Positions 1,227-18,572 of a stretch of 64,000 bases of DNA are shown one piece after another (position 1 is the stretch's first letter; every line of letters begins with the position of its first letter). This DNA comes from Eubacteriales bacterium (GTDB lineage: Bacteria; Bacillota; Clostridia; Christensenellales; JAWKQI01). The notes beneath the pieces are model-generated. The model was not told the origin of the DNA and ran no database searches. It saw nothing but the letters and a program-made list of their open reading frames with translations. The position numbers were made by a program, and so were the translations under genes. The stretch spans positions 107,558-171,557 of the forward strand of contig JAWKQI010000001.1 in NCBI GenBank assembly GCA_041390245.1, written 5' to 3'.

Positions 1227-1260
1227 AAAAAAGCCGCCTAAGCCTTAAAAGCTTAGCGGC
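1227..1260 (-). terminator. Intrinsic terminator hairpin inside the aroF leader (candidate attenuator)
   Basis: Minus strand reads GCCGCUAAGC-UUUUAAG-GCUUAGGCGGC followed by UUUUUU. It lies 18 nt upstream of the aroF ATG and 28 nt after the leader ORF stop. Confidence 0.7.
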
Positions 1261-1288
1261 AATCATTGTTTCTGTTATCGATGGCACA

Positions 1289-1390
1289 CTATGCTTTCAA
1301 GGGCATTTTGGTAAAGTAAAAATAGCCGTAGCTGCTAAAGCTAAAGCTTTTAAATCCCCAAAATAAATTATTGACCTTGATATTTGACAT
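1289..1390 (-). CDS. Candidate 33-aa leader peptide rich in Phe/Tyr/Trp
   Basis: Below the ORF-track length cutoff. GGAGA (1401-1397) sits 6 nt before ATG 1390. Translation is MSNIKVNNLFWGFKSFSFSSYGYFYFTKMPLKA*. Confidence 0.5.
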   Translation of the reverse strand: MSNIKVNNLFWGFKSFSFSSYGYFYFTKMPLKA

Positions 1391-1414
1391 TTTGTGTCTC
1401 CAATCTTTAATCAA

Positions 1415-1444
1415 ATTATATCACCGTATAAAATTAATTGTCAA
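1415..1444 (-). promoter_or_regulatory. Sigma-A-type promoter for the aroF leader
   Basis: TTGACA (1444-1439), an 18-nt spacer ending in TGa, then TATAAT (1420-1415). Confidence 0.55.
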
Positions 1445-3454: not shown

Positions 3455-4156
3455 TCATGCTTCATCGTTCATGCGGTACCCAACGCCAACATCTGTTAAT
3501 ATATATCTAGGCTGTGCCGGGTCCTTCTCTATCTTTCTTCGTATGTTTGCCATATTTACCCTTAATATCTGGTTATCACTAATATACGGTCCCCATATTT
3601 CCTTTATAATGAAGTCATGAGTAAGAACTTTTCCTACATTTCTGGACAGCAGTAAAAGTATCTTATATTCAACAGGCGTTAAATGCACATCTTTGGTTTC
3701 TATCTTAACTACTCTTTTTCTATAATCTATTTCAAGGCCTTTGATAACTGTCTTCTCCGGTTCCACGGTAGAATTTTCTTTTATCTTTGCGCTATGCCTT
3801 AATTCTACGCGTATCCTTGCTAATAATTCGGCAGTTCCAAAGGGCTTAGTTACATAATCATCAGCACCTAAGTCTAGTGCCCCTACCTTTTCACGCTCAT
3901 GGTCTCTTGCCGATAAAACTATAATCGGGACGTCTGAAAATTTTCTAATGCTTTTTATAACATCAAACCCGTCCATATCCGGCAGCCCAAGATCAAGCAA
4001 TATCAAATCAGGGCAATACGATGTAGTTATTAAGACTGCATCTTTCCCGGTAGAAGATTTCATTGTACTATAGTTGTTTACCTTTAAGACATCAGCAAGA
4101 AAGTTACTAATAACGGTGTCATCTTCAACGATTAAGATCAACGTTTGATTAGTCAT
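3455..4156 (-). CDS. kdpE: OmpR-family response regulator, KdpE-like (no cognate kinase adjacent)
   Basis: Receiver plus winged-helix domains (LIVEDD, DLILLDLGLPDMDG, SARD, YVTKPF). I chose ATG 4156 (MTNQTLIL...) because GGAGAAGG lies directly upstream. The ORF track extends to 4189. Confidence 0.8.
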   Translation of the reverse strand: MTNQTLILIVEDDTVISNFLADVLKVNNYSTMKSSTGKDAVLITTSYCPDLILLDLGLPDMDGFDVIKSIRKFSDVPIIVLSARDHEREKVGALDLGADDYVTKPFGTAELLARIRVELRHSAKIKENSTVEPEKTVIKGLEIDYRKRVVKIETKDVHLTPVEYKILLLLSRNVGKVLTHDFIIKEIWGPYISDNQILRVNMANIRRKIEKDPAQPRYILTDVGVGYRMNDEA

Positions 4157-4571
4157 TTTTCCTTCTCCTCTTCGTTTCAGGCCATACATTAAAAAGCAAA
4201 TTTTATTAGACGATTTTCAAATTATTAGCTGACTCTTTAATACTATAAATCTTTAAATACTAAAAATCCTTAGTTTGAAACTCGTCCATTTAAGAGGTTT
4301 TACAAGAATATTTAAAATCACGGTTTAAGGGTCATTTAAATTTTATTATTCCTTAACAGCTAATGTCTTATAAGAGTCTTTATAATTTTAAGATATTTAA
4401 CGGATAATATTAGCTTACTGCTGTAACTTTATTATTCATCATAATATTTATGTAACAATCTGTCAATCTACAGCAATGCTCATTTTCAAGCTATGCTGAG
4501 GTAAACAAAACCTCTTTAATGTATTAAATATATGGTCCCCAATTTCTCAATTTATATAGTATATAACAAGC

Positions 4572-4625: not shown

Positions 4626-4967
4626 TTAAACGGCTCCTTCGCCTTCTTCTCCTGTACGTATACGGATTACACGTGCCACATCGTACACAAAGATCTTTCC
4701 TTCGCCTTTATCGCTTCCTGTTTTAGCACTATCGAGAATAGCCTTAATTGCTTTATCTTCATCTTTATCATTTACTACTATGTCTACTGAAATTTTAGGC
4801 AGTAAATCAAGTGTAAATTTTTCACCTCTCCACTGCTGAACAATACCGCCCTGTTGTCCGTGGCCTTCAATTTCGGTGACCATAAGTCCATTGCAATCAA
4901 TATCTTTAAGTGCTGTCTTGACTTCTTCAAGCTTTTCGGGCTTAATAATTGCTTTAATATGTTTCAT
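4626..4967 (-). CDS. glnK: P-II nitrogen regulatory protein
   Basis: 113-aa PII fold sequence (MKHIKAIIKPEKLEEVK...). TAATG overlap with amtB. Confidence 0.9.
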   Translation of the reverse strand: MKHIKAIIKPEKLEEVKTALKDIDCNGLMVTEIEGHGQQGGIVQQWRGEKFTLDLLPKISVDIVVNDKDEDKAIKAILDSAKTGSDKGEGKIFVYDVARVIRIRTGEEGEGAV

Positions 4968-6295
4968 TACATATTACCTCCTGAACTTTCTTTTTTTACG
5001 GAATCATCACTGATAAGTGCCGCGTATACTGGCTTACGGGATATGAACTCAGGATATGCAACGTTGCCATGCTCGCCAATATCAAGGCCGACGATTTCTT
5101 CCTCAAGTTTAACTCTGATTCCAATAGTCTTTTTGATAACATACCATATAAGGAGAGATACTGGGAATACAAAAGCAGCAACTGCCAAAACGCCTACTGT
5201 CTGTATTCCTAAAAGTGATGCTCCGCCACCAAAGAGTAATCCATCGGTTGCCGATAAACTGGTTACACCCGCTTTTGCAAAAAGACCTACAGCAAGTGTC
5301 CCGAATATACCGTTTACTAAGTGAACAGATGTTGCGCCAACCGGATCATCTAACCTTAGTTTGTCAAACATCAATACTGCAAATACTACTATAACGCCAG
5401 CGATTGCTCCGATTATAAGTGAGCTTAAAACATCTACATATGCGCATCCTGCCGTTATCGCAACTAAACCTGCAAGGCAGCCGTTTATCGTCATGCCTAA
5501 ATCCGGTTTCCCTAAGAAAATCCACGATGCAGCCGTTGAGGTCAAGACACCAGCGATTGCCGCCGTATTTGTTGTCATGAAAATATGAGCAACTGCAGAT
5601 GGATCTGCCATAGACATTGTAGACCCAGGGTTAAACCCGAACCAACCTAACCAAAGAACAAATAATCCGATGGTTGCAAGAGACAAACTGTGCCCCTGAA
5701 TAGGTCTTGTTTTTCCGTCTTTAGTATATTTCCCAAAGCGCGGCCCTAAGACTATAACACCTGCCAAAGCAGCCCATCCTCCTACGGAGTGAACAACTGT
5801 CGAACCGGCAAAATCTAAGAATCCCAAGCCTCCAAGGAAGCCTCCGCCCCAGATCCAATGGCCTACTATAGGATATACCACTAAGGTCAGCAGGAAAGAA
5901 AATACTATAAACGATATATATTTCACTCTTTCTGCAACTGCTCCTGAAACTATTGTAGCTGCAGTTCCACAGAATACAAGCTGGAAGAAGAACTTTGCCC
6001 AAAAAGGTACGTTAGCGCCAAGCGTATATACACTTTCGTCTATATTTCCGGTTAATATGAACAAACCTTTTGTTCCTATTAACGGATTGTCTCCGCCAAA
6101 CATCAAGCCCCAGCCTAAAAGTAAAAACCCTAATGAAGAGACTGCAAAAACAATAAAGTTTTTGGAAAGAATGTTTACTGTGTTTTTAGATCTTGCAAAT
6201 CCTGCCTCTACGCATCCAAACCCAATATTCATAAAGAATACGAGAGCGCCAGTAAACAATACCCACGTGGTATCAATAGCCATCTGAACATCCAT
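4967..6295 (-). CDS. amtB: Ammonium transporter
   Basis: 442-aa Amt/MEP family protein (DFAGSTVVHSVGG, multiple TMs). GGGGGA RBS. Confidence 0.92.
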   Translation of the reverse strand: MDVQMAIDTTWVLFTGALVFFMNIGFGCVEAGFARSKNTVNILSKNFIVFAVSSLGFLLLGWGLMFGGDNPLIGTKGLFILTGNIDESVYTLGANVPFWAKFFFQLVFCGTAATIVSGAVAERVKYISFIVFSFLLTLVVYPIVGHWIWGGGFLGGLGFLDFAGSTVVHSVGGWAALAGVIVLGPRFGKYTKDGKTRPIQGHSLSLATIGLFVLWLGWFGFNPGSTMSMADPSAVAHIFMTTNTAAIAGVLTSTAASWIFLGKPDLGMTINGCLAGLVAITAGCAYVDVLSSLIIGAIAGVIVVFAVLMFDKLRLDDPVGATSVHLVNGIFGTLAVGLFAKAGVTSLSATDGLLFGGGASLLGIQTVGVLAVAAFVFPVSLLIWYVIKKTIGIRVKLEEEIVGLDIGEHGNVAYPEFISRKPVYAALISDDSVKKESSGGNM

Positions 6296-9932: not shown

Positions 9933-10125
9933 AAAAGTTACCTCCGAATTAGCCTCTTGGCTTTTTTTAAGATAGCTCTATGGCACTTCATATCAACGGC
10001 GTATATACCTTTAAATAAAAATACGCATCTACGAAACATACCACTGTCCCGCAAATGTGCTACATTTGCTGCCGTTGATTACGGCCCGGCCCCACGAACT
10101 TAACATAAGCCCATCGCCTGCTCAG
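9933..10125 (-). promoter_or_regulatory. Structured GC-rich 5' leader of the ATPase (unclassified candidate cis-regulatory RNA)
   Basis: AUCAACGGC (10079-10071) pairs with GCCGUUGAU (10000-9992), enclosing the hairpin GCAAAUGU-AGC-ACAUUUGC (10069-10051). There is a GGGGCCGGGCCG tract at 10093-10082. Confidence 0.3.
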
Positions 10126-10348
10126 TTTGTACTGTATTGTATGCAGTGCAAAGAGATTTTTATATTATAGTTTATGTGCAAAACACTGTCAAGTGTTACT
10201 CAAAACTTCTTTTTTATCAACTTTGCTTAAATATAGCATTATTATATCAAAAAACATGAAATATATTATATAATATACCAATTTTTAAGGCTTTTATCAA
10301 ACTCACTTCTCTTTTCAGTAAAATATATGAGTAAAGGATGTTAAAAAT

Positions 10349-18213: not shown

Positions 18214-18463
18214 ATGTTACCCCTCCATATGTGTGAATTGTACCTATTTTATCTCTAAAATGCGGACAAGTTGTGTCTAAGTTAATATTTTTGAAAAAAA
18301 ATTGTAACAATATGTAATTATTATAACAGAAATTTAATATAATAGAAGTTAATTATATTATTAAAAAGGTTAGATAATATTATAAACTCGGAGTATGTTT
18401 ATTATCTTAGAAGTTTTAACTAGTCAAAAAAATTTATAAAATAAAAAGAAAAAACAAATAACC

Positions 18464-18493
18464 AAAAAAACAGCTTGATCAAGCTGTTTTTTT
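18464..18493. terminator. Bidirectional intrinsic terminator
   Basis: A7-ACAGCTT-GATC-AAGCTGT-T7. Confidence 0.7.
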
Positions 18494-18495
18494 GG

Positions 18496-18572
18496 TGGCG
18501 TACCCGGGAGGATTCGAACCTCTGGCCTTAGGAGTCGGAGTCCTACGCTCTATCCAACTGAGCTACGGGTAC
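18496..18572 (-). tRNA. tRNA-Arg (anticodon CCG), CCA encoded
   Basis: Hand-folded cloverleaf: acceptor GTACCCG/CGGGTAC, D arm GCTC/GAGC, anticodon stem TAGGA/TCCTA with loop CTCCGAC, T loop TTCGAAT. Confidence 0.9.

Follow-up and report, generated by a model that had tools for sequence, protein, structure and literature searches.

The leader peptide aroR, located before the aroF operon of Corynebacterium glutamicum, was reported by Neshat et al. 2014, as summarised in PMC11802643, and was predicted in PMC4046766; according to the summary, read-through increases under phenylalanine (Phe) limitation (PMC11802643). The uORFC-13-1 motif of Acholeplasma was predicted by Brewer et al. 2021 (PMC8632094). 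These two are the closest known analogues of the element described here, which lies upstream of aroF-aroB in a 64,000-nucleotide (nt) stretch of an Eubacteriales bacterium (assembly GCA_041390245.1, contig JAWKQI010000001.1, positions 107,558 to 171,557; hereafter the window, whose own numbering is used throughout). The element consists of a short open reading frame (ORF) rich in codons for Phe, tyrosine (Tyr) and tryptophan (Trp) followed by an intrinsic terminator, both on the minus strand. Judged from the sequence, it is with a probability of roughly 85% a ribosome-mediated leader-peptide attenuator acting on aroF-aroB and responding to the charging of the aromatic tRNAs.

This reading, put forward in an initial annotation of the same DNA, is now supported by the conservation of the ORF, by a terminator present in 54 of 55 leaders, by an antiterminator that co-evolves with it and by a premature 3' end in Clostridioides difficile. 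Several of the features by which such attenuators are recognised were found. In the window, the ORF has its own Shine-Dalgarno (SD) sequence and start codon within the 5' leader of a biosynthetic operon, and the antiterminator strand is predicted to be free when the ribosome stalls and masked when it reaches the stop codon; the ORF is enriched in codons for the end products of the pathway, and a terminator separates it from the first structural gene.

Organization and distribution of the aromatic leader

Reading of the minus strand confirmed the promoter, SD sequence, 33-codon ORF, terminator with U6 tract and downstream aroF-aroB of the initial annotation, together with its count of ten aromatic codons within codons 10-26. 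The -35 hexamer TTGACA (1444-1439) overlaps the last codons of a gene for an EamA-family transporter and is followed, after an 18-nt spacer, by the extended -10 element TGaTATAAT (1423-1415). With a match of 12/12 and the additional TG, this was the sole perfect site within the 3 kb scanned, and its spacing predicts a transcription start near 1408. The SD sequence GGAGA (1401-1397), located 6 nt ahead of the ATG at 1390, forms a duplex of -6.4 kcal/mol with the 3' end of 16S rRNA. The ORF, read directly as MSNIKVNNLFWGFKSFSFSSYGYFYFTKMPLKA (1390-1289), has 33 codons and ends with UAG (1291-1289). Its aromatic residues are F10, W11, F13, F16, F18, Y21, Y23, F24, Y25 and F26, so that 6 Phe, 3 Tyr and 1 Trp fall within the 17 codons of the sensor cluster (1363-1313). 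The terminator hairpin starts 28 nt past the stop codon and is composed of GCCGCUAAGC (1260-1251), the loop UUUUAAG (1250-1244) and GCUUAGGCGGC (1243-1233); the U6 tract, again a direct reading, follows at 1232-1227, and the aroF ATG (1208) lies 18 nt beyond it.

The genome is 39% G+C, and an AT-rich spacer could carry a TTT/TAT-rich ORF by chance, with the hairpin acting as the terminator of the upstream EamA gene. In line with such an origin, the region between the EamA stop codon and the promoter is without a terminator, and one further ORF of the window attains an equal aromatic count: 2 of the 696 window ORFs of at least 20 amino acids (aa) reach ten aromatic residues in 17, the leader ORF being one. 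On the other hand, none of 20,000 shuffles of the leader reached this count, and the perfect promoter separates the EamA gene from the leader. Among 74 regions upstream of aroF homologues, 34 contained a short ORF in which 9 or more of 17 residues are aromatic. The opposite strand gave 1 of 74, and other windows of the same loci 10 of 1,540, showing that the enrichment is specific to strand and place; the feature is kept before aroF beside many different upstream genes. On these sequence comparisons, chance is already refuted and is given practically no weight. The second aromatic-rich ORF of the window (LIKLFFWLFVFSFYFINFFD, 18420-18482, minus strand), beside a tRNA-Arg(CCG) gene (18496-18572, minus strand), was considered as another leader and rejected; it starts in the tRNA terminator hairpin aaaaaaacagcttgatcaagctgttttttt, lies in T-rich DNA, has no SD sequence and was judged a chance occurrence.

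For the comparison among relatives, a collection with one genome per species provided 80 aroF loci, the best AroF being 63% identical to that of the window, so the source species is not represented in it. The 450 nt before aroF were searched for short ORFs having 7 or more aromatic residues in a stretch of 17, and such an ORF was found in 55 of 81 leaders (the 80 loci plus the window), followed in all but one by a hairpin and a U run. The median distance was 39 nt from stop codon to hairpin and likewise 39 nt from hairpin to the aroF ATG. A strong SD sequence was present in 70% of 61 homologous leaders versus 15% of background ATGs. The predicted peptides range from 18 to 60 aa, with the aromatic run as their only common part, and 56% of the codons in the clusters of 52 leaders are aromatic. 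By record title, the hosts comprise Christensenellaceae, Oscillospiraceae, Clostridium, Clostridioides difficile, Tissierellaceae, Pelosinus, Megasphaera, Phascolarctobacterium, Vulcanibacillus and some spirochaete-labelled contigs.

The nearest relative (L081, AroF 92% identical) is a contig that begins inside the leader and reads FWGFKSFSFSGYSYFYFTKMPLKV up to the stop codon. All comparable aromatic residues are kept, with two Tyr codons changed synonymously, while a Ser and a Gly are swapped. Its antiterminator changes are G-U compatible, and its terminator carries a compensatory insertion: relative to window positions 1260-1233, the 5' arm has gained an A and the 3' arm a U (CUAAAGC/GCUUUAG). 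Christensenellales relatives with about 73% AroF identity carry leaders beginning MRKFGKENTFFGFTSFSFCGYGYFSLAQ, MAIQGMDNRFFGFMGFSFFGYGYFCL and similar. The comparison of aroF upstream regions that had been suggested in the initial annotation thus showed that near and far relatives alike carry the ORF with its aromatic bias. Two Brachyspira-labelled contigs (L018 and L019) have, upstream of aroF, a short aromatic ORF reading …SIYAYYF(L/F)YYGV with its stop codon enclosed in a small hairpin (GGCGUUUAAGRCGCC). A clear terminator with a U-tract was not seen behind this ORF in either contig, and these leaders may be a translational rather than a transcriptional variant.

In C. difficile, aroF was listed by Fuchs et al. 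among the genes with premature termination in the 5' untranslated region (UTR) and without similarity to known riboregulators (bioRxiv 10.1101/2020.08.10.244764). For aroF2 of strain 630 (2105883-2106896), the same work places the start of the 5' UTR at 2105557, that is at -326, and the mapped termination site at 2105845, that is at -38 (10.1101/2020.08.10.244764). At the two C. difficile loci of our set (L046 and L080), the leader ORF starts at -300, or at -285 if the SD-supported ATG is taken, and the stem of the predicted terminator extends to -44, with UUUUUAUU after it. This places the mapped 3' end on the predicted terminator U-tract. Premature termination in vivo has accordingly been shown in this homologue only. 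In supplementary file 6 of the same study, the aroF2 5' UTR row has the values 2.2, 4.4 and 3.6 with small p-values, presumably from Hfq RNA immunoprecipitation sequencing. If so, binding of Hfq to the terminated leader RNA might give it a second life as a small RNA.

A search of the region against Rfam with cmscan (E up to 10) returned nothing above noise, including T-box, Phe_leader, Trp_leader and leu/phe leader; the best match was the trpB motif, mainly over the terminator, with 20.8 bits against a gathering score of 59 (E = 2.6). The remark in the initial annotation that no T-box consensus was visible is borne out, as the T-box model (RF00230) matches nothing in the window, whether E values up to 10 or the gathering score are taken as the cut-off. 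Over the whole window, the Rfam scan found a NiCo riboswitch and one tRNA only. Among 20 related aroF loci, the sole leader family was a T-box (121 bits) on an Erysipelotrichaceae contig (L036) that has no aromatic upstream ORF, a detection which shows that the covariance model works. An array of the TRAP type (9-11 (G/U)AG triplets, 2-3 nt apart) is absent from 1408-1227 by direct reading, where only three UAG triplets occur (1342-1340, 1336-1334 and the stop at 1291-1289).

Gene callers annotate homologues of the ORF as hypothetical proteins in many genomes, as would suit a small protein rich in aromatic residues that is co-transcribed with aroF and has its own role, the hairpin then being an ordinary terminator or stabiliser. 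A profile of 24 leader peptides retrieved 117 small proteins from a database of 5.8 billion sequences; all those that are named are called 'hypothetical protein', and none has a Pfam domain. Pfam and NCBIfam hold no family matching the leader peptides. All three of the peptide homologues that were looked up, one of them from Trichococcus (Lactobacillales), sit 120-160 nt before a gene for 3-deoxy-D-arabino-heptulosonate 7-phosphate (DAHP) synthase. A separate protein function is very unlikely in view of this lack of family matches, of the variable length of peptides that share the aromatic run alone, and of a terminator inside the operon combined with a co-evolving antiterminator overlapping the end of the ORF, which is the signature of a regulator. 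No description of this Clostridia leader family was found in open-access full text, while a prior description in subscription journals is possible.

Mutually exclusive pairings and the position of the ribosome

The alternative folds of the minus-strand leader RNA, whose computation the initial annotation had recommended, comprise an antiterminator and a terminator that exclude each other. Folding of the leader placed the antiterminator in the minimum free energy (MFE) structure and the terminator in the centroid. In the MFE pairing, CCUUGAAAGC-A-UAGUG-U-GC-C-AUC (1302-1280) is paired with GAU-U-GC-CGCUA-A-GCUUUUAAGG (1264-1243). The 5' strand, region 2 (CCUUGAAAGCAUAGUGUGCC, 1302-1283), straddles the stop codon UAG and begins 10 nt after the last aromatic codon, F26 (1315-1313). 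The 3' strand, region 3 (1264-1243), is made up of the terminator 5' arm, the loop and the first base of the terminator 3' arm (region 4). The antiterminator hairpin alone (1302-1243) has a free energy of -22.1 kcal/mol and the terminator alone, with its tail, -16.5 kcal/mol, whereas the full transcript from about 1408 has -46.6 kcal/mol in the terminator state (its MFE) and -45.9 kcal/mol in the antiterminator state. In the terminator state of the full transcript, the antiterminator strand 1302-1280 is paired with region 1 (1404-1372), which contains the SD sequence, the start codon and codons 1-6; segments AUUGG, CACA, AUGU, UCAAGG and UC of region 1 thus pair with region 2 in the MFE fold of the untranslated RNA, as the 5' strand of a putative anti-antiterminator.

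The effect of ribosome position was scanned by folding only the RNA 3' of the ribosome, whose leading edge was taken as the first base of the A-site codon + 12. With the last aromatic codon in the A site, the antiterminator strand begins one base past this leading edge. The predicted probability of the window terminator was 0-0.3 for A-site positions up to codon 27 (T27) and 0.8-0.9 from K28 to the stop codon. When the RNA was cut before the terminator 3' arm, the 5' arm was sequestered with a probability of 0.9, which drops to 0.2-0.3 at the boundary of codons 27 and 28. An earlier scan that included the untranscribed promoter gave a misleading profile, with promoter sequence pairing with region 2, and was replaced. 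Sequestration of the 5' arm was also used as a co-transcriptional proxy in the relatives, because the equilibrium probability was uninformative there. In 50 leaders, sequestration of the 5' arm fell from 0.70 for a ribosome on the cluster to 0.44 for one at the stop codon (Wilcoxon p = 1e-11).

ORF tails and terminators cannot be aligned between genera, and co-evolution was therefore analysed without alignment, by comparing the duplex energy of each ORF tail with its own terminator 5' arm and loop and with the arms of other leaders. Cognate duplexes had a mean of -12.85 kcal/mol and non-cognate duplexes -8.82 kcal/mol (n = 58, z = -12.0, 0 of 20,000 permutations). Examples of cognate pairs, ORF tail first, are CCUUGAAAGC and GCUUUUAAGG in the window, AAUGAGU and ACUCAUU in Clostridium, GGUUUGGCUG and CAGCCAAACC in Oscillibacter, and, via G-U pairs, GGUUGGGCUG and CAGCCUAAUC in another Oscillibacter leader (L043). 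The antiterminator strand starts a median of 17.5 nt past the last cluster codon, and at least 9 nt past it in 86% of leaders; in 40 of 58 leaders it lies within the footprint of a terminating ribosome. The 60 nt upstream of the cluster also matched their own antiterminator strand better than those of others (z = -5.2, 50 leaders), which supports, at the level of sequence, the putative anti-antiterminator.

The initial annotation had placed the antiterminator pairing elsewhere, between codons 14-20 and the terminator 5' arm. This complementarity is real (RNAduplex, -13.9 kcal/mol), but codons 14-20 did not hold up as the conserved antiterminator: two relatives (L007 and L033) have no counterpart, the signal across the family is weak (z = -2.8), and the segment would be hidden under most stalled ribosomes. 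At most, it may act as an auxiliary pairing. In L081, the gain of an A and a U in the terminator makes the ORF repeat GCUUUAGC perfectly complementary to the terminator 5' arm, in an 8-base-pair match (GCUUUAGC/GCUAAAGC); the sensor region of this lineage thereby resembles the terminator 3' arm and may provide a second antiterminator for early stalls. From the comparisons above, the conserved antiterminator is predicted to be the stop-straddling strand 1302-1283 paired with the terminator 5' arm and loop. This assignment gives a clean logic leading from stalling to read-through, which the initial annotation had been unable to derive.

Hairpin P1 within the putative sensor codons

Alignment of whole leaders with MAFFT and RNAalifold recovered a single conserved element, hairpin P1, the ORF tails and terminators being unalignable. 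Within the subfamily of the window, ten leaders with AroF proteins of only 60-73% identity share 22 invariant columns in AGCTTTAGCTT...GGCTACGG(C/T)TATTT, and RNAalifold folds the conserved stretch into a hairpin of nine pairs. The window copy occupies 1348-1324 within the codon cluster and consists of AGCUUUAGC, the loop UUUAGCA and GCUACGGCU, followed by AUUUUU; an outer stem of UUUGG (1362-1358) with CCAAA (1311-1307) encloses the sensor cluster. The subtypes of P1 have the same helix with different inner pairs, and pairing is kept in the variants AGCUUUACC/GGUAAGGCU, AGCUGGGGC/GCGCUGGCU, AGCUUUGUA/UACAAGGUU and GGCCUGAGC/GCGCAGGUU. A strict helix test was passed by 23 of 59 leaders versus 8.5% of codon-shuffled controls, and cluster regions folded better than their codon shuffles (mean z = -0.98, p = 4.5e-7; window z = -2.34). 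Ser is encoded by AGC in 73% of cases in the clusters versus 22% in aroF, with Tyr codon usage unchanged. A metagenome scan with the exact pattern of the P1 core found 10 sites, all 10 of them inside an aromatic upstream ORF and 170-225 nt upstream of an AroF homologue.

Such constraint could mean that the RNA structure itself is the regulator, the P1 core binding a protein, a tRNA or a small ligand that chooses between terminator and antiterminator, with the ORF secondary or incidental. The 22 invariant columns across divergent genomes, the strong codon bias at synonymous sites, the compensatory helix variants between subtypes and the positive values with small p-values in the presumed Hfq row for C. 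difficile all fit this explanation. It is nevertheless improbable, as the reading frame and its SD sequence are conserved, aromatic identity is kept through synonymous and Phe/Tyr changes, and no Rfam family matches. Moreover, short subtypes that are devoid of P1 (e.g. MKLFSANFAYNYYYYYRNVR and leaders beginning MFKNIFAYAYYFYYYYF) keep the aromatic ORF, the terminator and the cognate antiterminator; P1 may add an input but cannot replace the ORF.

The peptide could in turn be the sensor. A motif FWGF..FS..GYGYF is recognisable in leaders that are phylogenetically distant, and an arrest peptide of the TnaC type would sense free aromatic amino acids in the exit tunnel. However, the conserved non-aromatic residues coincide with the strands of P1, where the RNA covaries (UGG-GGC with GCU-GG, CAG-GGC with GUU-GG, CUG-AGC with GCA-GG), so the helix explains the conserved Ser, Trp, Gly and Ala residues by RNA rather than peptide, and the Ser and Gly are swapped in the 92% relative. 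Stalling induced by the ligand would also be expected to turn on a biosynthetic operon at high product levels, the opposite of the logic that aroF calls for. We therefore regard arrest by the nascent peptide as highly unlikely.

Within the attenuator reading, P1 is a candidate for an RNA polymerase pause hairpin that would let the ribosome catch up. Tentatively, and with odds below even, P1 may be a programmed pause that forces transcription-translation coupling in an uncatalogued family of Bacillota attenuators, or else the docking site of a second input. On this reading, the family would extend over Clostridia, Negativicutes, Tissierellia and some Bacilli, with the sensor codons wrapped around P1.

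Proposed mechanism, gene neighbourhood and comparison with known systems

In the attenuator reading, transcription would begin near 1408 at the consensus promoter, and a ribosome would load at GGAGA and AUG 1390 and translate the 33-codon leader. P1 and the AUUUUU behind it may pause RNA polymerase until the ribosome catches up. With ample Phe-, Tyr- and Trp-tRNA, the ribosome would reach the UAG at 1291-1289 and cover region 2 (1302-1283); the terminator (1260-1227) would then form and transcription would end before aroF. When aromatic tRNA is scarce, the ribosome would stall within codons 10-26 (1363-1313) and leave region 2 free, because region 2 starts just past its leading edge even at the last aromatic codon. 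Free region 2 would pair with 1264-1243 into the antiterminator (-22 versus -16.5 kcal/mol), allowing read-through into aroF-aroB. If the leader is not translated, 1404-1372 would pair with region 2, giving the terminator by default. The logic is that of the trp attenuator of Escherichia coli, with pairing 1:2 in the untranslated RNA, 2:3 on stalling and 3:4 at the stop codon. The parts, the mutually exclusive pairings and their co-evolution were shown by computation.

Several points weigh against this reading. Leader translation, ribosome stalling and the response to the supply of Phe, Tyr and Trp are steps that we infer. The RNA polymerase of Bacillus subtilis outruns ribosomes, and ribosome-mediated amino acid attenuators are thus unexpected in Bacillota. 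Most of the relatives favour the terminator at equilibrium at any ribosome position; as their terminators are thermodynamically stronger than their antiterminators, the switch must be kinetic, that is, co-transcriptional, which is also the case in the classical systems. In 18 of 58 leaders, among them that of C. difficile, the stop codon follows the antiterminator strand at a considerable distance, and a terminating ribosome would leave the strand uncovered. The near-invariance of P1, including synonymous sites, exceeds what the classical model needs and hints at an extra input. The initial annotation had further proposed that all three aromatic amino acids are sensed, but the codons are mostly those of Phe and Tyr, with just one Trp codon in the window and Trp codons present in no more than 20 of 52 leaders. 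For C. glutamicum aroR, the summary in PMC11802643 states that only Phe limitation was effective and that Tyr availability was without effect.

The gene behind the leader, aroF (1208-195, minus strand), has its own SD sequence GGAGA (1220-1216, minus strand) and encodes a DAHP synthase with a DAHP_synth_1 domain and an N-terminal FXD domain. The protein is 100% identical to an NCBI entry, '3-deoxy-7-phosphoheptulonate synthase [Eubacteriales bacterium]', from a metagenome-assembled genome. The ferredoxin-like FXD domain occupies residues 1-67. In this class of DAHP synthases, it mediates allosteric feedback inhibition; if this role holds here, entry into the pathway would be under double control, by attenuation and by feedback. 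The 5' part of aroB (3-dehydroquinate synthase; 198-1, minus strand) overlaps the aroF stop codon with its start (ATGA). Its identity comes from synteny with L081, whose downstream gene has a DHQ_synthase domain, the window fragment alone giving a weak Fe-ADH_2 match only.

Upstream, a domain search identified the EamA-family transporter gene (2354-1437, stop codon 1436-1434, minus strand). It has no terminator of its own between its stop codon and the leader promoter, so read-through transcripts from it would meet the attenuator too. Export of aromatic amino acids is known for some EamA proteins, E. coli YddG among them, and a functional link between the transporter and the aroF leader is possible. 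Elsewhere in the window, the NiCo (nickel/cobalt) riboswitch aptamer lies at 10042-10135 (minus strand) and scores 77 bits, the gathering score being 37. Genes for an OmpR/KdpE-type response regulator (3455-4189), a P-II protein (4626-4967) and an ammonium transporter (4967-6295), all on the minus strand, were recognised by eye from the ORF translations and are unrelated to the leader.

The leader would offer a simple regulator that can be annotated for the common aromatic pathway in many gut and environmental Clostridia, C. difficile included, for which databases now show just a 'hypothetical protein' or an unexplained premature terminator. It would extend amino acid sensing by leader peptides to a phylum in which T-boxes, riboswitches and proteins such as TRAP are considered the means of control. 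It could also serve as a natural reporter for asking if, and by what means, the ribosomes of Clostridia stay level with RNA polymerase, with P1 as a concrete candidate for the pause that enables coupling; if that role is true, coupling would take place at this leader in a phylum where it is thought to be generally absent. Removal of the leader should de-repress aroF in strains engineered for aromatic compounds.

Compared with known systems, the proposed mechanism is classical, and the family, its breadth in Bacillota and the embedded hairpin appear uncatalogued. Like the window leader, C. glutamicum aroR is, in the summary cited, a ribosome-mediated attenuator before a DAHP synthase gene with mixed aromatic codons (Phe-Tyr-Phe). 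Compared by its description only, aroR differs in belonging to Actinobacteria and in having three regulatory codons versus about ten in 17, and the text consulted reports no embedded conserved hairpin, unlike the P1 of the window. The uORFC-13-1 motif likewise has an upstream ORF with Phe codons directly before an intrinsic terminator, occurs only upstream of aroF, contains an additional conserved base-paired substructure and is hosted by relatives of Bacillota; it differs, again by description only, in being confined to Acholeplasma and environmental DNA (24 sequences) and in a U run that itself codes for at least one Phe. E. coli pheL, trpL and pheM follow the same four-region logic, with regulatory codons, a stop codon beside the antiterminator strand and a terminator before the first gene, and terminate by default without translation, as is predicted for the window; they differ in being proteobacterial and in responding to one amino acid each through a short tandem run, and cmscan found no similarity to them at E up to 10.

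T-box leaders share the proposed role, sensing tRNA charging before aromatic genes of Bacillota, but bind tRNA directly and have no ORF. The T-box before the Erysipelotrichaceae aroF may be regarded as another sensor of tRNA charging at the same place, a functional analogy. Within Bacillota, antibiotic-sensing ribosome-mediated attenuators of Bacillus have been described for bmrCD and vmlR (PMC4191407 and PMC9226507), and in the tylosin-induced yxjB leader stalling of the ribosome is coupled with NusG-dependent pausing (as outlined in PMC6851288). These, and the leu/phe leader of Lactococcus, which has no Rfam match in the window, concern other genes and other signals, in Bacillus a drug-stalled ribosome; as described in those texts, they demonstrate that control by a stalled ribosome on a leader ORF works in Bacillota, sometimes aided by pausing.

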